DNA of 63,810 nucleotides from positions 1-63,810 of the forward strand of contig JADLHE010000005.1 in NCBI GenBank assembly GCA_020848965.1, in the 5' to 3' direction. The notes beneath the pieces are model-generated. The model made no database searches. It worked only from the letters and a program-made list of their open reading frames with translations, and was not told the origin of the DNA. Numbering within the stretch: position 1 is the first letter of the stretch; every line of letters begins with the position of its first letter. The DNA comes from Saprospiraceae bacterium (GTDB lineage Bacteria > Bacteroidota > Bacteroidia > Chitinophagales > Saprospiraceae). The position numbers and the translations under genes were made by a program. Positions 8,753 to 62,813 of the stretch are shown in pieces.

Positions 8753-11700
8753 TCAATCATCCAACTCCTCCCCTTCCACATCCGCAAAACTGTCCACTTG
8801 CTGCTGTGCCTTCAGGAAGCGGCACCACGAGCAGTCTTCTTGCCCGCAGCCCACGTAGAACTCCTGCCGCATGATTCGGGCGTAAGTATCGGTAATGAGT
8901 CCCTTCACGAAGACTACGTCCTCCGGCTGGTACTCGATGCGCTTCGTCTCGAAATTGCCCCGTGCATCGGGTTCGAGGTAGCTGATTTCGGCGCTGACGG
9001 CACGGGCCGTATTCCGCCGCCAATTGTCGAAGAGGATTTTGTAGAAAACGAGCTGGCGCCAGTAAGCACCGCCAATTTCGGATTTCGGATTTCGGATTTC
9101 GGATTGGGGGTCGTGCAACTTGCTACTGTCTGAGGACTGCTGGACTAACTGACTGTCGGACTGACTGCCAACTGCCAACTGTCGAACTGCCAACTCAAAA
9201 TTCGGCCTGCGCAGCCGCTCCGGGTCAACACCGCCCGTTTTATAGTCCACGATATGCGCTTCTTGGCCGCTTTTTCCTAGGTAATCTATCCGGTCTAGGA
9301 TGCCCATGATGGGCACGCCGTCCACCACCACGTTGTTGAATTCTTGCTCTACTTTGCAGTTCAATGTCCAATTGGCTTGGTGGTGGCGCACGTAGTCGGC
9401 GAGGTACTGCCTGCCGAGGTCGAGCCGCCGTTCAAAGTCTTTTTTGCTTAAAAACCCTTGCTGCCGTCGCATTTCATGCTCAAAAAACTGCACGAACTCG
9501 CCCGCAAAGGGAAAATGCCGATTGCCGGGGGCCGCCCGTAGCACTTGGTCGAAGCCCCGGCGCAAGGCATTGTGCATGGCCACGCCGTAGAACGCTGCTT
9601 CGGTAGCCACGGCAGGTGCCCGCAGCACATTTTCATAGTAAAAACTCAGCGGGCAGCGCAGGAACTTGTTCATGGCCGTTACGCTGAGGGTAAACTTCTC
9701 CAGTAGCGCCTGCACCGCCGCCCGGTCGTGAGTCCCGATGCCTTCGGTCGGCTTGCTTTCGAGCAGCAGCGCTGCTTGCGCCTCCAAAATGGCCATTGGG
9801 CTGACGCTGCCGGGTCGTTCCTCAATTCCCGTCCCGGCTCCAAGGGGGCTTGCCCCCTTGCCATTCCCCATTATTTCATCCAAAAACTGGGTGCGCATGA
9901 GCGCCTTCCCGTCGTCGCCTTGCGTGGCATAGCTGATGTGCAGCCGCTCCTTCGCCCTCGTCATGGCCACGTAGAACAAGCGCCGCCTTGCCTCTAGTGC
10001 ATCGGCCTCGCCGCTCAGGTGCAGCGTATCCGGGAAGCTAAACTGGAACTGCCCGCCCCGCTTGGCTGGCTCCCAATTGTCCTTCACGCAGTCGAGCAGG
10101 AAGACGTGGCGGAACTCAAGACCCTTGGAACTGTGAGCGGTGAGGAGTTGAACAGCTTGGTTTGAATTGTTTGAGGAGTTTGAATTGTTTGATGGGTTTG
10201 AGTCGCTTGGGAGACTGCCAACTGCCAACTGTCGAACTGTCGAACTTCCTGAAGCCAACTGTCGAACTGCCAACTGAATCCTATTTGCGTCCATGCTGGC
10301 GAAAACCTCCAACAGCCTCGTCAGGTGGAGCCGTGGATTGCGGAGCGCCTCGTTTTCGATGAAATTGGTGAAGGCGAACAGCACTTGCAGCAGCTCAGCC
10401 TTTCGGTCGCTGGCCAGTACGTGGCGCAGCAGACCGCTTCGGTTGATGAGCCTTTCGATAAAATGCGGCACGCTCAGGTTGGCGTATTCACCAAGCATAA
10501 ATTCCACAAAATCAGACAATTGTGAAAATGCATTGGGGTTTTCGACCCCAGCCGTTTCCAAGAAATTTTTATCGGAAATCAACTGCCGCCAAGGCCGGGC
10601 AACACTGACCGAATCGCCGTCTGCCGTCTGCCGTCCACCGTCCACCGTCCACCGTCCAGCGTTCACCGAGAGCCGAGCAATATCCTGTGGTTTTATCCCA
10701 AAAAACTCGAAATGCAACATTCGGAAAAGCGCCTGCTCGCCACTGAACGGGCGGTGGAACTCGTCCACAAAATAGCCGAGCATCAGGCGCAGGTTCTGCA
10801 CCAACGGCAGGTCGAGGGCATTGATGGATTGGCGGGTCTGGTACGGGATGCCTTTTTTTTCCAAAAGCGACATCAGGCGCTTGGCTTGGCGGTGCTTCGC
10901 AAAAATGACGGCTACCTCATCGAGCGGGAAGCCCTCGTTCATTAGGTTTTCGAGTTGCTCCGCAATGGCCACCTCCTCCTGCAAGCGGTTCGGGTAGGCG
11001 TTTACCGAAGGTAAAATGGACAACTGGGCATAGTCGGGATGCCGTGCAGTCAGGATTTTTTCCAGCCCCAAATCCTTGAGGTTGTTCACGATTCGCAGCG
11101 TGTTCGTGGCGATGAGTGTCCCTGCCGAGTCGAGTATGTGCTGCGTGGAGCGATAGTTTTCGGTCAGCACCACCACCTTCAGGTCGTCGTGGTGGGTGTG
11201 GTAAAAATCGGTGATGTTCTTCAGCCTTGCCCCCTGAAACTCGTAGATGCTCTGGTCGTCGTCGCCGACGATGAAGATGTTGGGGGCATCCCAATACTCG
11301 GTAAGGCCTTGCAGTATTTCGTTCTGTGCGCCGTTGGTGTCTTGGTATTCGTCGAGTAGGAAATAGAGGTACTGCTCTTGGTAGCGGGCCAGCAGGTAGG
11401 GGTGTTCCCGGAAGGCTCGTAGTACCCACAAAATCATGTCCTCGTAGTCGTAGCGGCGGCGCTCTCGCAATATTTCTTCATAGCGTGGGAACAACTTCAC
11501 AGCCGAGCGAAGCCGCTCCATTTTCAGTTTTTCATCCTCAATGGCGGCGGTTTTCAGGTCGCCTTTTTTCCAAGTGCCACGGTTTTGTTGGTAAATGAAC
11601 TCTTTGCGGGCGGGCAGGTCAGTGAGGTAGGCGTCTATTTTTTCTTCGACAAAAGTAGGCGTCCAGTTCTCCGATTTCATGCGGCGGAACAGCTCCTGCA

Positions 11701-12166
11701 AATGCTGCTCGTAGCGGTAGCCATCGGAGCGGCCCCGACGCAGCGGGTGCGTCCACGGCAGTTCGTCGAGGAGCTGGCGGAGGGTTTCCACCCGCTCTAG
11801 GTCGCTGAGTGGCTCGGTTTCCCGGCGGCCAAAAAGGTCGAGGTTGTCCTGAATGATGGTGTTGCAAAACGAGTGGAAGGTGAAGATATGCACCTTGTGG
11901 ACATCCGGCCCGATAAGTGAGAGCAGTCTTTGGCGCATGGCCTGCACCCCAGCATCGGTGAAGGTGAGGCAGAGGATATTGTGCGGCTGTGCATCGGTTT
12001 TCAGTAGGATGTTGCCGATGCGGGCAGCGAGGATATGTGTCTTGCCTGTGCCCGGCCCGGCGATGACCAGCACGGGGCCTTCGATGGTTTCCACGGCTTC
12101 CCGTTGCGCCGGGTTGAGGCGCTCCAGTTCCCGAAGGAATTGCTCATTGTTGGTCTGGATGGTCAT
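8753..12166 (-). CDS. UvrD/PcrA-type SF1 helicase fused to a C-terminal PD-(D/E)XK (RecB/AddB/Cas4-like) nuclease domain, carrying three in-frame low-complexity insertions
   Basis: ORF 8753..12226; start set to ATG 12166 (MTIQTNNEQFL). Helicase motifs: Walker A IAGPGTGKTH, LLDEYQDT, TAHSSKGLEF. Nuclease motifs: ILDRIDYL, IVDYKTG, YWRQLVFY. One Cys in CPLSFYY plus a C-terminal CGQEDCSWC cluster. Confidence 0.85.
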   Translation of the reverse strand: MTIQTNNEQFLRELERLNPAQREAVETIEGPVLVIAGPGTGKTHILAARIGNILLKTDAQPHNILCLTFTDAGVQAMRQRLLSLIGPDVHKVHIFTFHSFCNTIIQDNLDLFGRRETEPLSDLERVETLRQLLDELPWTHPLRRGRSDGYRYEQHLQELFRRMKSENWTPTFVEEKIDAYLTDLPARKEFIYQQNRGTWKKGDLKTAAIEDEKLKMERLRSAVKLFPRYEEILRERRRYDYEDMILWVLRAFREHPYLLARYQEQYLYFLLDEYQDTNGAQNEILQGLTEYWDAPNIFIVGDDDQSIYEFQGARLKNITDFYHTHHDDLKVVVLTENYRSTQHILDSAGTLIATNTLRIVNNLKDLGLEKILTARHPDYAQLSILPSVNAYPNRLQEEVAIAEQLENLMNEGFPLDEVAVIFAKHRQAKRLMSLLEKKGIPYQTRQSINALDLPLVQNLRLMLGYFVDEFHRPFSGEQALFRMLHFEFFGIKPQDIARLSVNAGRWTVDGGRQTADGDSVSVARPWRQLISDKNFLETAGVENPNAFSQLSDFVEFMLGEYANLSVPHFIERLINRSGLLRHVLASDRKAELLQVLFAFTNFIENEALRNPRLHLTRLLEVFASMDANRIQLAVRQLASGSSTVRQLAVGSLPSDSNPSNNSNSSNNSNQAVQLLTAHSSKGLEFRHVFLLDCVKDNWEPAKRGGQFQFSFPDTLHLSGEADALEARRRLFYVAMTRAKERLHISYATQGDDGKALMRTQFLDEIMGNGKGASPLGAGTGIEERPGSVSPMAILEAQAALLLESKPTEGIGTHDRAAVQALLEKFTLSVTAMNKFLRCPLSFYYENVLRAPAVATEAAFYGVAMHNALRRGFDQVLRAAPGNRHFPFAGEFVQFFEHEMRRQQGFLSKKDFERRLDLGRQYLADYVRHHQANWTLNCKVEQEFNNVVVDGVPIMGILDRIDYLGKSGQEAHIVDYKTGGVDPERLRRPNFELAVRQLAVGSQSDSQLVQQSSDSSKLHDPQSEIRNPKSEIGGAYWRQLVFYKILFDNWRRNTARAVSAEISYLEPDARGNFETKRIEYQPEDVVFVKGLITDTYARIMRQEFYVGCGQEDCSWCRFLKAQQQVDSFADVEGEELDD
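9075..9105. repeat. heptamer array ATTTCGG x4.4 inside the helicase CDS
   Basis: Read directly. Encodes ..SEIRNPKSEI.. on the minus strand. Confidence 0.9.
9134..9196. repeat. degenerate CCAACTG/GGACTGN word array inside the helicase CDS
   Basis: Read directly. Contains a 27-mer (9163-9189) identical to 10213-10239. Confidence 0.85.
10159..10202. repeat. GTTTGAA/TTGTTTG word array inside the helicase CDS
   Basis: GGTTTGAATTGTTTGAGGAGTTTGAATTGTTTGATGGGTTTGAG. Encodes the SNSSNNSNQ-type low-complexity peptide. Confidence 0.85.
10213..10276. repeat. CCAACTG / TCGAACTG word array inside the helicase CDS
   Basis: Encodes QLAVRQLASGSSTVRQLAVGS. Shares the exact 27-mer GACTGCCAACTGCCAACTGTCGAACTG with 9163-9189. 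Confidence 0.9.
10618..10668. repeat. heptamer arrays CGTCTGC x2 plus CGTCCAC x3 (and 2 degenerate units) inside the helicase CDS
   Basis: Read directly. 51 nt, or 17 codons. Encodes ..GRWTVDGGRQTADG.. Confidence 0.9.
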
Positions 12167-15515: not shown

Positions 15516-15723
15516 CTGATAAATAGTTGGTTGGTGAATTTGCGCAGCACTCGACACAAGCGCTTGCGAGGTCAGCCTGCTGCCAAATCAGTTTCGTTTT
15601 GCGATTCCGAGCGGAAAGCTAGTTGTTGAAATTTGGATGACCAAATAGAACGACGGGAAACTGTCCGACTGGGCCATTTCAACCATTGGGTGATAGTCGA
15701 ATTTGATGATTCGCCCGGAGGGG

Positions 15724-17193
15724 TTATTGCTTCAATGCATACAAGTAGTAGTTCTCGTTTTTTACGTTGTAACCATCGAACGGTTTCCAAACTTGGGCAT
15801 TTGGATAGCGCGCTTTCTCCAATTCTTTGTCCGTGACGATTACGATGCCGCCAACGCCTTTGTACTTGGCAAAAAGCCTAAGCTCTGACTCTGTTGGCAG
15901 GTAAACCTTTTCCAGCCACTTGAAATAGGTGAAGGGCATCCCATTTGGCAATTCATAGAACGGCCTTCGGGCGTAGCCTGACACAGGGGCCGCAGCGAAT
16001 TTGTTGATAGCTACGATAGGCACATTTTCAGGTACATTTTTTCGGATGAACTCTCCCGCTATTTCGGCATTGGTAAAAGGGTACGACACATCTTTTTGCA
16101 ATGCCCGCAGGTTGTAGAGCAATTGCGCACCTAGGAACACCGCCAAGATGGTCGTTCGTTGCCAGTTTAGCGGCTTGGTTTCTTTGCTAGACAAGGCCAG
16201 GGCCATCAGGAAGAAGGCATACTGCATACCCCATTGCCGCAGCCCACCGGGATAAATGGCCACGCCGAAGAGGAAAAACGCAGTGGTGTGCAAAAAGAAA
16301 GTCCAGAATGCTTTGGCCGCAGGCCAGAAGAAATAAGCCAAGGCTATGACGACCAAGGCGCTAAGGAGCAAGTTGATGGCTGATACACCAAACACGTTGG
16401 TGTCTTTAATTAGGCCAATCAGGAAGGTATTGGCAAAGTCGCCTTGAAAGGCAGTGGCGAAGTTGTCCGCTGAGAATGGCTGGCTAGTGTAGGCTCGCCC
16501 CAGTTCTTCGTGTTGAGCGCGTGGGAACACCGTAGCGACAAAAAGCAAGACTCCCGCTGCGAACGCCGCTAGGGTTTTTCGCAGTGCCAAATCATGAAGC
16601 GCCATTTGCCATTTGCCTCCTTGCAGCTTCATTTGCAATAAATGGAACCACAAGCAGGCCGCCATGATGACGCCAAAGACCTCGGTCTGGCAGAGCAGGA
16701 AGAGGTAAATGCCCAGTGTCCAAGGTTTCTCATCCGTTTTTTCGAGCGCCGAGACGCCCAAAAAACCAAACAACAGGACGAAAGCATAGCCTCGGTCTAG
16801 AATGCCGTATTCAAAGAAAATGAAATAGCCAAACAGGGCCAACGCTTTCACCCAGAAAGCCATGCGCAACCGGAACACCAGCACCGCCCATGTAGCAGTT
16901 ACGACCAACCAATGCGACAGGTGCAGCAATGTCTCACCGGGCAACTTGGTCGCTTGGGCCAGATAGGTCCAGATTTTCAAGTAAAAATACCATATGGCGG
17001 GGTGGCCTTCGTAGAACAGCGATGCATACAATTTGCCCCAACCCATGTCACGGGCCATGAGCCAAGCCTGCCATTCGTCCTTCCAACATTCGTGAAAGCC
17101 AAATTTGACAGTCAAAGCAAAAAGACTAGCGGCAGCCAACAATATGTATTTTGCTGGCTTGGAGCTACCGTCCTCTATGGTGGGCAAATTCAT
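15724..17193 (-). CDS. polytopic membrane protein, possibly a GT-C-type glycosyltransferase (function uncertain)
   Basis: 489 aa with many hydrophobic helices and a soluble C-terminal ~130 aa. No catalytic motif that I can name. Confidence 0.5.
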   Translation of the reverse strand: MNLPTIEDGSSKPAKYILLAAASLFALTVKFGFHECWKDEWQAWLMARDMGWGKLYASLFYEGHPAIWYFYLKIWTYLAQATKLPGETLLHLSHWLVVTATWAVLVFRLRMAFWVKALALFGYFIFFEYGILDRGYAFVLLFGFLGVSALEKTDEKPWTLGIYLFLLCQTEVFGVIMAACLWFHLLQMKLQGGKWQMALHDLALRKTLAAFAAGVLLFVATVFPRAQHEELGRAYTSQPFSADNFATAFQGDFANTFLIGLIKDTNVFGVSAINLLLSALVVIALAYFFWPAAKAFWTFFLHTTAFFLFGVAIYPGGLRQWGMQYAFFLMALALSSKETKPLNWQRTTILAVFLGAQLLYNLRALQKDVSYPFTNAEIAGEFIRKNVPENVPIVAINKFAAAPVSGYARRPFYELPNGMPFTYFKWLEKVYLPTESELRLFAKYKGVGGIVIVTDKELEKARYPNAQVWKPFDGYNVKNENYYLYALKQ

Positions 17194-19462: not shown

Positions 19463-19469
19463 GCTTTGC

Positions 19470-19541
19470 GAGGATTTGAAGATGCGTGGATTCGAGGATT
19501 CGTGCGGGGGGCATCTCAAATCCTCGCATCTTCAAATCCTC
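19470..19541. repeat. 17-bp perfect inverted repeat built from GAGGATT(T/C) octamer words, between two minus-strand genes
   Basis: GAGGATTTGAAGATGCG (19470-19486) and CGCATCTTCAAATCCTC (19525-19541). The spacer contains further GGATTCGAGGATTC / AAATCCT words. Confidence 0.85.
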
Positions 19542-19553
19542 AAATCCTCACTA

Positions 19554-20632: not shown

Positions 20633-20677
20633 GCGAGCGGATTACTCGAAACTCGAAACTCAAAACTCAAAACTTCT
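20633..20677. repeat. ACTCGAA/ACTCAAA heptamer array with GCGAGC head, 5 nt upstream of the pabB ATG
   Basis: GCGAGCGGATTACTCGAAACTCGAAACTCAAAACTCAAAACTTCT. Near-identical to 62774..62813. Confidence 0.85.
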
Positions 20678-20681
20678 AAGG

Positions 20682-21980
20682 ATGACGAGGCTTTCCGAAA
20701 TATTTCCCCTTCCAATCGGCCATGATTTCAAGCAACGAGCCTTCCGCTGGGCGAGCCAGTTCGAGGTGTCTTGCTATCTGGACAGCAACGGCTACCAAGG
20801 CGTCGTCGGCAGTGAGCATGATTGTCTGTTGGCGGTTGGTGTTGCTTCGCAATTGCTGCTAAAAACCGAAGCTGGTGCCTTCAATGCGCTGAAAAATTAC
20901 GTGGACGGCCACCAAGACTGGCTTTTCGGCTACCTTACCTACGACCTGAAGAACGACGTGGAACCCCGTCTTTCTTCAAAAAACCACGATGGCATTGGCT
21001 TCCCCGCCCTGCATTTTTTCCAACCAGCGGTGGTCATGGAGATTGCGCAGCAAAGTGTCACCATTCACAGCCTAACAGATTTGCCGCAGCTACTCTACAA
21101 AACCATCAACAGTTTGCCACATACAGTACGGGTTGGCGCAATCCGCAATCCGCAATCCGCAATCCGCAATAGAATACACAAGGCCGATTACCTAGAAACC
21201 ATCCAAGCCATCCGCCAGCACATCCTTCGGGGCGATATTTACGAGATGAATTTTTGCCAAGAATTCTTCGCAGAGGATTGCCTGATTGATGCCCCTGCCG
21301 TTTTTCAAAAATTGAACGGCCTTGGGAAAGCTCCTTTCTCAGGTTATTACCGCCTTGCCGACCGCCACCTACTTTGCGCCAGCCCTGAGCGGTTTTTGAA
21401 AAAAATAGGCAGTAAGCTCATATCGCAGCCCATCAAAGGTACCCGCCGCAGGGGCCGTACCGTCGAAGAAGATGCCGCATTGCGCCAGCAACTCTACCAA
21501 AGCCAGAAAGACCGCTCCGAAAATGTGATGATTGTTGACCTCGTTCGCAACGACCTCGCCCGCTCCTGCCGGGCAGGTAGCGTGCTGGTGGATGAACTGT
21601 ACGGCATTTATCCGTTCGAGCAGGTGCTCCAAATGATTTCGACGGTGAGCGGCGAGCTGTTGCCGGACGTACATCCCGTGGACGCCATACGCCGCTCCTT
21701 CCCGATGGGCTCCATGACCGGGGCGCCCAAGGTGCGCAGCATGGAACTGATAGAGCAGTACGAACAGACTAAACGGGGACTGTATTCCGGGGCGGTAGGC
21801 TACTTCACCCCGCAGGGCGATTTTGACTTCAATGTGGTTATCAGAAGTATCCTCTACAACGCCGCCGACCGTTTCCTGAGCTTCCAGGCTGGCGGGGCCA
21901 TCGTCTTTGATTCGGAGCCGGAAAGTGAGTATGAAGAGAGCCTTCTCAAGGCTCAAGGCATGTTCAAGGTGCTGTCTTGA
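20682..21980 (+). CDS. pabB: aminodeoxychorismate synthase component I (chorismate-binding enzyme family)
   Basis: ORF 20631..21980; the ATG at 20682 gives MTRLSEIF. Motifs PIKGTRRRG, VRNDLAR, SFPMGSMTGAPK and GGAIVFDS. Confidence 0.8.
   Translation: MTRLSEIFPLPIGHDFKQRAFRWASQFEVSCYLDSNGYQGVVGSEHDCLLAVGVASQLLLKTEAGAFNALKNYVDGHQDWLFGYLTYDLKNDVEPRLSSKNHDGIGFPALHFFQPAVVMEIAQQSVTIHSLTDLPQLLYKTINSLPHTVRVGAIRNPQSAIRNRIHKADYLETIQAIRQHILRGDIYEMNFCQEFFAEDCLIDAPAVFQKLNGLGKAPFSGYYRLADRHLLCASPERFLKKIGSKLISQPIKGTRRRGRTVEEDAALRQQLYQSQKDRSENVMIVDLVRNDLARSCRAGSVLVDELYGIYPFEQVLQMISTVSGELLPDVHPVDAIRRSFPMGSMTGAPKVRSMELIEQYEQTKRGLYSGAVGYFTPQGDFDFNVVIRSILYNAADRFLSFQAGGAIVFDSEPESEYEESLLKAQGMFKVLS
21137..21171. 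repeat. heptamer array CGCAATC x~5 inside the pabB CDS
   Basis: Read directly. Encodes GAIRNPQSAIRN. Confidence 0.9.
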
Positions 21981-52554: not shown

Positions 52555-52660
52555 CAGGGTGGCCTTTGTGATTTTACAAGTGCGTGTCTGAACGTTCAGG
52601 GTGGCACTGCCAAAGTTTGCAGTGCATGTCTAAGCACTTAAGGTGGCACTGCCAAAGTTT
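52555..52660. repeat. 42-bp tandem repeat, about 2.5 units, upstream of the pectate lyase gene
   Basis: CAGGGTGGC starts at 52555 and 52597, and AAGGTGGC at 52639. GGTGGCACTGCCAAAGTTT is identical at 52600-52618 and 52642-52660. Confidence 0.85.
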
Positions 52661-52676
52661 TTGGACGCCCCGCACC

Positions 52677-52725
52677 ATTTTCAATTCTCCCTGCCTGCCG
52701 GACAGGCAAGAATTTTCAATTCTCC
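52677..52725. repeat. direct repeat ATTTTCAATTCTCC x2 flanking a CTGCCTGCC-GGA-CAGGCAAG hairpin
   Basis: Copies at 52677-52690 and 52712-52725. Confidence 0.85.
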
Positions 52726-52820
52726 ATTGGTTCTGCGCCTTTTTACCCGTTTTTGGCGCAAAATTCCATGTATGGAACTGCCATTCCCGCCGTGTTTTGT
52801 CCACAAAAAAAATCTGTTTT

Positions 52821-54815
52821 ATGAAGTACACGATTTTGGCTTTCAGTTTATTCATTTTCAGCTTCGCAAACGGCCAACTACCCGCTTTCCCCGGAGCGGA
52901 GGGCTTTGGCACCACGACAACCACGGGCGGGCGTGGCGGCACGGTTTATTATGTGACCAACCTCAATTGCAGCGGCCCCGGCTCCCTCAACTACGGCCTC
53001 AGCCAGTCGGGGGCGAAGTACATCCTGTTCAAGGTCAGTGGCATCATTGACTGTGCGGCGGAGGTGCTTTGGGGCAACTGCTATATCGCTGGGCAGACCT
53101 CGCCGGGCGGCGTCACCGTGCGGGGCATCCTCTTCGACGATTTTTACGACCCCGCCGGCTCTGCCGAAAACGTCATCATCCGCCACCTGAACTCCCGGCC
53201 CAGTACCGAGGACGTGCGGGCCGGCACAGGCTGGGTCATGGACGACGCCCTGCGCCTCGACGGGGCGAGCAATATCGTCGTTGACCATTGTTCTTTTGCC
53301 AACGCAACGGATGAATGCGTGCAGCTCTCCCGCAGCTCGAACATCACCATCTCCAATTGCCAACTGGCGGAGACCCTCGGCGGGCACTACTACCTTGGCG
53401 GCATGCTCATGAACTACTCGACCACCGCCCACCCCCGTGACCATGTGAGCATCCACCACAATATCTGGAACCGCATCGGCGGGCGCATGCCCGAAATCTC
53501 CTGCGAGCCGAGCGGCGAGGTGCCCGGCGACATGGACTGTCTGGCGCACCCGTTCCGCTTCGAGTTCTCCAACAACCTGCTCTGGGACATGCCCATCCAG
53601 ATTTACTACGAGCCGCTCGACGAGTTTTTGATTGAGCCAAACTTCGTCAACAACCGCTGCGTGGCAAGGGCCAGCTACGGCGGTGCCATGTTCCACCACC
53701 CCATGCTCGACCACAGCGGTAACGAGTTGTACTCCGATGGCAACACCATGAACCTCTACCCCAGTTACTCGGACTACGAGCTTTTTTATTGCTGCAACGA
53801 CTTCAATCTTTACAATCCCAATCCCGACAACGGCGTGGCCACCCTGCGCTCCAGCCGTTTCAACTACCCTGATATATCCTATACGCCAACTGGAAATTTG
53901 GACGACTATGTCTTCGACAATGTCGGGGCCTTTAACGCCCACAGCAGCATGGGCCGTGACAGCATGAACCGCCGCCTGATGAAGTTCATCAACAACAACA
54001 GCATAGACCCCCAGCCCGTGGACGGTGAGGACTACTACCACGACGCCTTCCTGCTCGACTTTACTACCCCACCCGCCGCCCCGACCGATACCGACAACGA
54101 CGGCATGCCCGATGCTTGGGAAAACACCTATGCCTCCTATGGCCTCGACCCCAACGTGGCCGACCACAACGGCACCCAGCTTTCCGTGCCGTTGACGGGC
54201 ATGGCGGGCTACACCAACCTGGAGTGCTACCTGAACCTATTGGCCGAAAACCTCGTGTCCGGCAACGTCACCCTTGCCACTGAGTTGGTGGACTTCAACG
54301 CCATTCCCATCGCTGCCGAGCGCAAGGTGCTGCTCCGCTGGACGACCGCCAACGAGGCTGATAATCAAGCCTTTATCGTGGAGCACAGCGCCAACGGTCA
54401 TGATTTTGAGGTGGTGGGACGTGTTGCTGCGCAAAACCAATCGCACACCGTCCGCTATGAGTTGGTTGACGAAAACCTGCGGAGCGGCCTGCATTATTAT
54501 CGCCTCGTTGCCCTCGGCAATGACGGCAGCCGGGAGGTTTTCAAGACTGTTTCGGTCAACCTCGTAGCGGCAGGTGATTGGTTGCGGCTGCGCCGCAATA
54601 TTTCCGAAGGGAAAATAGAAGTACAGGTAATGGACGAGCTGCGGCTGCCCTTGCGGGTGGCGCTCTACGACGTGAACGGCCGCATTTGGCGGGACGCCAG
54701 CCTCCAAAACGGGCAAGGCTCGGTGGACGTGTCGGGGCTGCCGTCGGGCGTGTATTTCCTACAGCTTTGGAATGGTTATTTGCGGCACTCGGAGCGGGTG
54801 GTGGTGGGGCGGTAA
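52821..54815 (+). CDS. secreted pectate-lyase-like (right-handed beta-helix) protein with T9SS type A C-terminal sorting domain
   Basis: ORF 52584..54815; the ATG at 52821 gives MKYTILAFSLFIFSFANGQLPAFPGAEGFG. Ca-binding-type DTDNDGMPDAWE. C-terminus VALYDVNGRIW...LPSGVYFLQL. Confidence 0.75.
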   Translation: MKYTILAFSLFIFSFANGQLPAFPGAEGFGTTTTTGGRGGTVYYVTNLNCSGPGSLNYGLSQSGAKYILFKVSGIIDCAAEVLWGNCYIAGQTSPGGVTVRGILFDDFYDPAGSAENVIIRHLNSRPSTEDVRAGTGWVMDDALRLDGASNIVVDHCSFANATDECVQLSRSSNITISNCQLAETLGGHYYLGGMLMNYSTTAHPRDHVSIHHNIWNRIGGRMPEISCEPSGEVPGDMDCLAHPFRFEFSNNLLWDMPIQIYYEPLDEFLIEPNFVNNRCVARASYGGAMFHHPMLDHSGNELYSDGNTMNLYPSYSDYELFYCCNDFNLYNPNPDNGVATLRSSRFNYPDISYTPTGNLDDYVFDNVGAFNAHSSMGRDSMNRRLMKFINNNSIDPQPVDGEDYYHDAFLLDFTTPPAAPTDTDNDGMPDAWENTYASYGLDPNVADHNGTQLSVPLTGMAGYTNLECYLNLLAENLVSGNVTLATELVDFNAIPIAAERKVLLRWTTANEADNQAFIVEHSANGHDFEVVGRVAAQNQSHTVRYELVDENLRSGLHYYRLVALGNDGSREVFKTVSVNLVAAGDWLRLRRNISEGKIEVQVMDELRLPLRVALYDVNGRIWRDASLQNGQGSVDVSGLPSGVYFLQLWNGYLRHSERVVVGR

Positions 54816-56557: not shown

Positions 56558-56637
56558 CAATGATAAATGATGAATGATGAATGATGAATCCTCACGGCAC
56601 ATCATTTATCATTCTATCATTTATCATTCATCATTTG
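56558..56637. repeat. AATGATG heptamer array plus inverted TCATCATT-type array forming a long imperfect hairpin between atpD and atpC
   Basis: CAATGATAAATGATGAATGATGAATGATGAATCC ... ACATCATTTATCATTCTATCATTTATCATTCATCATTTG. Confidence 0.85.
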
Positions 56638-62773: not shown

Positions 62774-62813
62774 GCGAGCATACTCGAAACTCGCAACTCA
62801 AAACTCATAACTT
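62774..62813. repeat. ACTCGAA-family heptamer array with GCGAGC head, 12 nt upstream of the leader-peptide-2 ATG
   Basis: GCGAGCATACTCGAAACTCGCAACTCAAAACTCATAACTT. Near-identical to 20633..20677. Confidence 0.85.

Follow-up and report, generated by a model that had tools for sequence, protein, structure and literature searches.

The window analyzed in this work, meaning the whole stretch of DNA examined, comprises 63,810 nucleotides (nt) from a Saprospiraceae bacterium (assembly GCA_020848965.1, contig JADLHE010000005.1). On its minus strand lies an intact open reading frame (ORF) of 1137 amino acids (aa; ATG at 12166, stop at 8753) that encodes a UvrD/PcrA-like superfamily-1 helicase combined with an AddB/Cas4-like PD-(D/E)XK nuclease with four conserved cysteines (8753-12166), and that contains several in-frame blocks built largely of tandemly repeated 7-nt words. 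The Pfam domains UvrD-helicase, UvrD_C and PDDEXK_1 are detected in the protein, with the PDDEXK_1 match starting at aa 826, and the best matches in the PDB are PcrA and UvrD. The protein scores below all NCBIfam equivalog cut-offs (AddA/AddB, RecB, PcrA, UvrD), the best model being pcrA (249 bits vs 911), and its conserved motifs are invariant in 25 aligned orthologs. An earlier note, made from the sequence alone, had reported that the frame remains open through three blocks of 7-nt words, which is borne out by the sequence, the ORF list and Tandem Repeats Finder; the block peptides it quoted are present in the translation, and the flanking motifs IVDYKTG, YWRQLVFY and TAHSSKGLEF are located as described. 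An example of a peptide spanning the inserts is LAVGSQSDSQLVQQSSDSSK.

Tandem arrays were located with Tandem Repeats Finder and a lag-7 self-match scan; all features of the helicase-nuclease gene are given on the minus strand. Block A (9074-9196) is, according to the ortholog alignment, an in-frame insert of aa 991-1031 (ELAVRQLAVGSQ...PKSEI) located between the DYK and QxxxY motifs of the nuclease domain. It contains a perfect 31-nt array of ATTTCGG (CCGAAAT on the gene strand) with 4.4 units, encoding SEIRNPKSEI (9075-9105), and a CCAACTG-type array (9164-9195), the latter within a copy of a dispersed CAGTTGG-type unit of ~35 nt (9161-9196; gene strand AGTTGGCAGTTCGACAGTTGGCAGTTGGCAGTCAG) found by repeat search, which includes a 27-mer at 9163-9189. 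In the degenerate center of this block (9140-9160) there is one plus-strand TAACTGA, whose AACTG core is common to CCAACTG; this may be a coincidence. Block B (10160-10276, aa 631-669), placed by alignment and the match to PcrA at the 2B-to-2A junction, directly precedes TAHSSKGLEF. A CCAACTG/CGAACTG array occupies 10214-10276, and two CAGTTGG-type units are recognizable at 10213-10276, namely the exact 27-mer (10213-10239) and a 78% copy (10243-10269). On the gene strand, the 3' half of block B (10160-10201) shows a 9/18-nt period, a multiple of 3, and consists of GTTTGAATTGTTTGAGGA repeated 2.3 times, encoding NSNSSNNSN. Block C (10616-10668, aa 504-517), a GGACGGT/AGACGGC array in a loop of the 2B domain as judged from orthologs, encodes GRWTVDGGRQTADG followed by a degenerate unit; its plus-strand words are GCCGTCT with 2.9 and CCGTCCA with 5.4 units. 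The peptide given for this block in the earlier note is correct for 10616-10657 and fails for 10658-10668, which is a degenerate extension. Two further details of that description had to be revised. The blocks do not consist only of tandem words, given that the middle of block A (~9106-9160) is degenerate and block B has its 9/18-nt periodic part, and the insertions are not three, since a fourth one had been overlooked. This block D (9827-9865), found by codon alignment, is an in-frame insert of NGKGASPLGAGTG in the linker between helicase and nuclease and contains a GC palindrome, AAGGGGGCTTGCCCCCTT, at 9842-9859.

Period 7 is the sole over-represented tandem period in the window, with 5 arrays vs 0-1 for each other period from 4 to 12 in the self-match scan; in the window together with eight ortholog loci, 21 period-7 arrays were counted vs 0-5 for other periods. 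The longest perfect tracts in the helicase-nuclease gene comprise 4.4, 3.9, 2.9 and 2.6 units. Every word used in this gene is free of stop codons on both strands and is therefore tolerable in any phase; the word AATGATG, which forms an intergenic array in the window, carries stop codons in its forward orientation. RNA folding revealed no excess structure in window blocks A, B and C (z = -0.6, +1.8 and +2.5), and the fold of block D, with its short palindrome, is unexceptional (z = -0.2), which rules out a reading of blocks A-D as structured RNA or hairpin elements. A scan of the whole window against Rfam at gathering thresholds yielded 0 matches, so that the arrays are not a curated RNA family.

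The best 120 homologs of the helicase-nuclease are all full length, mostly of 1046-1050 aa, and the closest of them (71-85% identity) have 1101-1175 aa. In the 25-sequence alignment, the extra length is confined to a few sites where distant orthologs are short or empty. All relatives at 71-88% identity have inserts at the same sites; block A is missing in orthologs at or below ~66% identity and present, with varying content, in close relatives, and a metagenome scan found no heptamer array in the helicase-nuclease genes of orthologs at or below 61% identity. That the blocks are insertions, as initially proposed, thus holds: the distant orthologs (~1046-1050 aa) do without them, and the sites lie in predicted loops between conserved motifs. 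The metagenome scan also added two close relatives, L137 and L134 (94% and 85% aa identity), the second of which carries its own versions of blocks A and B. The contigs of both terminate at block C, L137 with its end and L134 with its start, which suggests that the arrays break short-read assemblies or vary within populations.

For comparison at the DNA level, the window gene (WIN) and eight close orthologs (L001, L002, L003 and L005-L009) were aligned by codon, which revealed four variable sites, C (~aa 502-520), B (~aa 631-670), D (~aa 768-780) and A (~aa 991-1031); with the partial metagenome relative L134, ten array-bearing genes, nine of them complete, were read. The comparison of frame and length runs between ortholog lineages. 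All ten genes have a single frame that is open through every block, and no frameshifted allele was found among them. In the nine complete genes, the inserts measure 78-147 nt at site A, 63-177 nt at site B and 33-78 nt at site C, all multiples of 3, and the lengths of orthologs likewise differ by multiples of 3, which in most cases are not multiples of 7 or 21. Although its units are reshuffled, block C totals 69 nt in WIN, L003 and L008, lineages that are ~15-20% apart in nucleotide sequence. The suggestion that multiples of three units are under selection does not hold literally, given the fractional unit numbers (4.4, 7.3); what is kept is a total insert length divisible by 3.

Because the unit of 7 nt is no multiple of 3, a change by one unit frameshifts the helicase-nuclease gene, and the earlier note had therefore considered an on/off switch. 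As a contingency locus, the gene would be toggled by slippage of a single unit, reversibly altering repair or recombination capacity. The perfect tract of 4.4 units at 9075-9105 is in line with this possibility, heptanucleotide tracts of Haemophilus can mediate phase variation (PMC2651432), and the two metagenome contigs ending at block C could reflect population heterogeneity. However, repeat-associated contig breaks are expected from assembly alone, and the tracts of the gene are short and interrupted, with no more than 4.4 perfect units vs 8-38 in documented heptanucleotide phase-variation tracts (PMC2651432). They are situated at ~44%, 55-59% and 87-91% of the ORF, that is, mid-gene and near the 3' end and not in its 5' part, whereas phase-variable simple sequence repeats (SSRs) are concentrated near N-termini (PMC3315296). 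Furthermore, the host is a housekeeping repair gene and not one for surface components, restriction-modification or the like, its array-bearing orthologs are in frame in ten cases out of ten, the length of block C is constant at 69 nt across diverged lineages, and the same arrays occur in unrelated housekeeping genes and in intergenic hairpins. Taken together, these observations render a switch function highly improbable.

The content of the inserts differs even among relatives that are 84-90% nucleotide-identical outside the blocks. At site C, WIN and L003 have GGACGGT-type units, which in L003 form a reshuffled GGACGGC/CAACGGT array, and L007 has a standard 32-nt CGCAATC (AATCCGC) array replacing ~35 nt; the sequence is non-repetitive in L001, L002, L005 and L006, and L009 has no block C. 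Site B contains CAGTTGG units and a 9-mer repeat in WIN, L001, L002 and L005, and an inverted pair, GGATTGC...GCAATCC, in L003, L006, L007 and L009; in L006 this pair folds as a hairpin of ~160 nt (z = -6.8). The right half of site A is made of CCGAAAT in WIN, of ACTCAAA-type words in L001, L002 and L005, of CGCAATC in L003 and L006, and of GAAACCA-type words in L007 and L009. Both WIN and L134 have block D; it is doubled in L007, takes a different form in L008 and is missing from L001, L002, L003, L005, L006 and L009. An assembly artefact was ruled out as the source of the blocks by the presence of inserts at the same sites in independent assemblies, including long-read ones. Inteins, introns and translational bypass were also dismissed, given that all ortholog inserts are in frame and free of stop codons, which these mechanisms do not require.

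Blocks A and B share the 27-mer mentioned above with zero mismatches (9163-9189 and 10213-10239); exactly two copies exist in the window, and 100 dinucleotide shuffles produced 0 matches. A search of 1.59 Mb of DNA, allowing up to 3 mismatches, located the 27-mer at helicase site A of WIN, L002, L003, L005, L006 and L009 and at site B of WIN, L002 and L005. Two intergenic spacers also contain it, one of L006 (2930-2956) and one of L003, the latter with an inverted pair (15652-15678 and 15749-15775), as do two other ORFs of the Saprospiraceae metagenome-assembled genome (MAG) Tobar13m-G26 and an ORF for a TonB-dependent receptor in the Saprospiraceae MAG OdNE, where a CAATCCG array with 4.7 units follows directly. 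There were 0 matches in the 116 loci of other taxa obtained by genome scan and 0 in viral contigs. The 27-mer is part of the ~35-nt unit, whose consensus, AGTTGGCAGTTCGACAGTTGGCAGTTGGCAGTCAG, comprises ~5 heptamer units and whose internal deviations (..GTTCGACAG..) are common to the copies. Such common imperfections point to the copying of a pre-formed unit, as independent slippage does not predict them. In addition, sites A and B of L001 share 44 identical nt, including a small non-repeat hairpin, sites A and B of L006 share 29 identical nt of a CGCAATC array, and site A of L006 matches site B of WIN over 34 nt. The insertion or copying of a pre-formed array, which had been put forward from the two window copies, is thus corroborated by the imperfect 27-35-mer at unlinked loci and in other Saprospiraceae genomes, and extends beyond the helicase gene. 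The sequence comparisons support the view that the CAGTTGG-type unit of 27-35 nt has spread by copying and not by slippage alone.

A small hairpin, CCCGATGAGGNACGAATCGGG, is nested in CAGTTGG arrays of L001 (3829-3849 and 4900-4920, both helicase sites) and L007 (13067-13087, site A). Neither this hairpin nor the palindrome of block D was found elsewhere in the window or in all loci searched; both occur only in helicase genes.

A purely local origin of the blocks would dispense with copying between loci: native codons would have been expanded by slippage or duplication, and the shared 27-mer would result from convergence or from an ancient intragenic duplication. Orthologs lacking large inserts do encode the peptide QLAV (as CAGTTGGCAGTT) at site B, L009 has a proto-repeat at site C, and homogenization of units is visible in block C of L003, which is a 14-mer repeated 2.5 times, and in WIN, with 3-4 identical units. 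We nevertheless consider this origin quite unlikely. It does not account for the 27-35-mer with the same deviations at unlinked genic and intergenic loci and in other genomes, for the 44 nt, non-repeat hairpin included, that sites A and B of L001 have in common, or for the standard 32-nt AATCCGC array that takes the place of ~35 nt at site C of L007. Descent alone is also unlikely to have left 27 bases unchanged, as the nucleotide divergence outside the blocks amounts to 14-23%.

The positions of the blocks in the protein were derived from alignments and from an AlphaFold model built from the 25-sequence alignment, which is mediocre (mean predicted local distance difference test (pLDDT) 62, predicted template modeling score (pTM) 0.33). 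In this model, aa 508-521 (block C), 634-669 (block B) and 998-1028 (block A) are coil with pLDDT below 50, with better predicted flanks. Residues 455-661 of the protein align with residues 391-549 of PcrA, a region that we take to be the mobile 2B subdomain from what is known of PcrA, UvrD and Rep. Blocks B and C fall where the protein aligns with the 2B domain of PcrA and its junction, block B adjoining the conserved LMTxHxaKGLEF motif; block D follows the helicase core and precedes the PDDEXK_1 match, and block A lies between the DYK and QxxxY nuclease motifs. As predicted by the alignments and the model, all four insert positions are loops or linkers.

Similar arrays were found outside the helicase-nuclease gene. 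Within the 63,810-nt window, 5 arrays lie inside genes and ~6-7 outside long ORFs. The gene of a pabB-like chorismate-binding enzyme (20682-21980) carries an in-frame CGCAATC array of 4.9 units in its inter-domain linker (21137-21170, plus strand), encoding GAIRNPQSAIRN. Its orthologs have IRNPQSA, IRNPKSE, KLETQNS, LIPHPSS or ITNHQSP at the same site, and the word families are shared with the helicase. Just 5' of the pabB-like start codon, Tandem Repeats Finder identified an ACTCGAA/ACTCAAA array of 4.4 units (20644-20674, plus strand), and another array of this type lies outside any long ORF (62782-62812). An inverted heptamer pair, AATGATG with 4.4 units and CATCATT, forms a strong intergenic hairpin directly after a stop codon (56559-56636; -35 kcal/mol, z = -7.4), which resembles a terminator made of repeat arrays. 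A second intergenic hairpin (19467-19550; z = -5.9) is an inverted pair of 8-nt arrays. The perfect arrays of the window measure 31-34 nt. In L003, a CAGTTGG array resides inside the ORF of an NtrC-type sigma-54 response regulator, and the word families present at unlinked loci include the CAGTTGG-type unit, CGCAATC and ACTCAAA. Unrelated to the heptamer arrays is a 42-nt tandem duplication (52579-52660, 2.0 copies, 82% identical) at the 5' edge of the long frame 52572-54812.

A scan for three CAATCCG units in one genome per species retrieved at least 119 stretches, and the matches listed come from Acidobacteriota, Planctomycetota, Verrucomicrobiota, Gemmatimonadota, Chloroflexota, Bacteroidota and others. 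Among these listed matches (850 kb), 257 period-7 arrays were counted vs 3-15 for each other period, with ~97 of the arrays located in long open frames; the ATTTCGG/CCGAAAT word also forms arrays in loci of other phyla. Hosts confirmed by Pfam among the matches listed are UvrA, a class I tRNA synthetase, a Ser/Thr kinase, a NuoL/Mrp subunit, FtsX and a C25 peptidase, in which the arrays encode NPQSAIRNPQS or RIADCGL; in the Ser/Thr kinase, the array has the DFG motif on one side and the SPE (APE-type) motif on the other. AATCCGC was also recovered in 61 viral-contig stretches, some of them with several copies. Across the many phyla and the viral contigs, AATCCGC/GATTGCG arrays often occur as inverted pairs and are often in frame in conserved genes. 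The length of perfect AATCCGC stretches has its mode at 31-33 nt, or ~4.5 units (53 of 127 among the matches listed).

Based on these data, we regard it as probable that the blocks of the helicase-nuclease gene are resident copies of dispersed heptamer arrays, filtered by selection for frame, absence of stop codons and location in loops. This explanation starts from the established position, frame, dispersal and fast turnover of the arrays and from their predicted disorder. Arrays of heptanucleotide words would populate Saprospiraceae genomes both between genes, often as hairpin-forming inverted pairs, and within genes, where their survival would depend on a word that is stop-free in the reading orientation, an inserted total divisible by 3, and a permissive loop or linker. 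In the helicase-nuclease, four such permissive sites would have been filled, two in or near 2B, one in the linker and one between nuclease motifs. The arrays would be transcribed and translated as low-complexity disordered loops, and their content would turn over through homogenization at the level of units, as seen in block C of WIN compared with L003, and through copying or conversion from other arrays, between sites A and B or from elsewhere in the genome. Purifying selection would retain the frame, and the arrays themselves would be passengers, at most linker material, and not a regulatory switch.

Several observations weigh against this explanation. Translation of the inserts is predicted from the open frame, and the AlphaFold model is mediocre, with non-repeat segments that have likewise low pLDDT. 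QLAV, encoded by CAGTTGGCAGTT, is already present at site B in orthologs of 60% identity, and L009 has GAACGGCAAGAAGGCGAT, a proto-repeat, at site C; some array sequence could thus have grown from native codons, and such native proto-repeats may have acted as seeds for arrays or drawn them in. In the loci compared, neither a transposase nor a target-site duplication nor any other sign of mobility was found, and these loci offered no empty sites by which to fix the insert boundaries. Finally, the helicase gene is rich in arrays, with 14 in 27.0 kb vs 2 in 90.1 kb of flanking sequence in the eight ortholog loci, and a pure passenger model leaves this enrichment unexplained.

The enrichment would in part be explained if the repeat peptides were adaptive modules that selection favored for tuning the nuclease and the 2B domain, in the form of disordered linkers or interaction segments, as has been suggested for Borg tandem repeats. 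The inserts persist at the same four sites throughout a clade that spans ~72-90% nucleotide identity outside the blocks, most relatives keep ELAVRQLAVGS, with which block A starts, and tandem repeats of Borgs produce disordered regions under selection (PMC9879509). Yet the content and length of the sites vary freely among close relatives, with whole heptamer families swapped; block C is missing in L009, and block D in most relatives. Identical arrays are found in unrelated proteins and non-coding DNA, and the ELAVRQ unit is conserved at the DNA level in non-coding copies too. In our judgment, the chance that the repeat peptides are adaptive is small. A further possibility is that arrays of ~31-35 nt (4.5 units) constitute a distinct class of micro-elements across many phyla and phages, which would be actively copied or templated instead of being grown by slippage and would enter ORFs at loops by means of stop-free words, with the helicase-nuclease as a preferred recipient. 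That preference would possibly be linked to the action of the enzyme at DNA ends or repeats. We put this forward as a tentative and rather doubtful proposal.

Several kinds of repeats that have been described share features with these arrays. Heptanucleotide repeats are, according to the summary of Mrazek et al. 2007 given in PMC4679880, the most abundant class of long SSRs in many prokaryotes, with a patchy distribution. TAACTGA direct repeats, mostly intergenic, are known from Beggiatoaceae, Cyanobacteria and five Bacteroidetes (PMC4679880). GGGNATC repeats of Xanthomonas and Nostoc prefer four units, form tandemly inverted pairs and are depleted in ORFs (PMC4692102); G-quadruplexes have been offered as an explanation of the preference for four units. 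The arrays reported here resemble such long SSRs, or the short tandemly repeated repetitive (STRR) sequences of cyanobacteria, in their 7-nt tandem units, the sole excess of period 7, the few dispersed word families, the frequent arrays of ~4 units, the tandemly inverted pairs, the patchy distribution across phyla and, perhaps, an intergenic bias. However, the known repeats are mainly intergenic and ORF-depleted, whereas here several arrays are in frame at conserved loops of one conserved housekeeping gene. The words are also different, and ~4.5 units are preferred although AATCCGC and the words of the window cannot form G-quadruplexes, which makes the explanation offered for the four units of GGGNATC inapplicable.

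Rickettsia palindromic elements (RPEs), selfish repeats found in protein-coding genes as in-frame insertions (Ogata et al. 2000, as presented in PMC10969869), provide a second parallel. In both cases members of a dispersed family occur in frame in housekeeping genes that are unrelated to each other, where the fold is predicted to accommodate them, and add an extra peptide, the translation of which is predicted here. RPEs are, however, palindromic elements of ~150 bp with a conserved peptide, and the elements here are heptamer arrays of ~31-35 nt, the content of which turns over between close relatives; hairpin potential is mostly absent in the window blocks, and terminal inverted repeats and target-site duplications, which are features of MITEs (miniature transposable elements with inverted repeats), were not seen. 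In L001 and L007, the small hairpins that sit within CAGTTGG arrays may recall the small dispersed repeats (SDRs) of Nostoc, which Elhai et al. reportedly described in 2008 as elements shorter than 100 nt that can be nested in heptamer arrays and lie inside conserved genes; the phylum and the sequences differ from those studied here.

In Borgs, the repeat units within ORFs are reported to be multiples of 3 and to arise locally. Borg tandem repeats evolve rapidly, reside in ORFs and encode disordered segments (PMC9879509), a likeness to the fast-evolving in-ORF arrays of this work, for which disorder is predicted; the difference is the 7-nt unit of dispersed families. SSR contingency loci share with the arrays an in-ORF tandem unit not divisible by 3 (PMC2651432, PMC3315296) and differ in tract length, position in the gene and gene class, and in that no out-of-frame alleles occur among the ten genes read here. 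Neither the array strings nor their peptides turned up in any paper of the library searched. Heptamer-array units that act in an RPE-like manner at several conserved loops of one enzyme, with swapping of families, are a combination of two known kinds of repeats.

Arrays of 7-nt units, usually seen as intergenic curiosities or phase-variation tracts, can thus persist in frame in conserved housekeeping enzymes, where they behave as fast-evolving loop cassettes. They therefore represent, in free-living Bacteroidota and apparently across many further phyla, a heptamer-array counterpart of the Rickettsia RPEs. In practical terms, such arrays cause breaks in metagenome assemblies, make proteins appear more divergent than they are and can mimic contingency loci or pseudogenes. 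Their conserved imperfections, preferred size and the swapping of word families at one site offer a handle on the question of spread by copying vs slippage. If the arrays were indeed actively copied micro-elements, this would imply an undescribed mechanism of insertion or repair templating, together with a widespread source from which conserved proteins gain new disordered loops.

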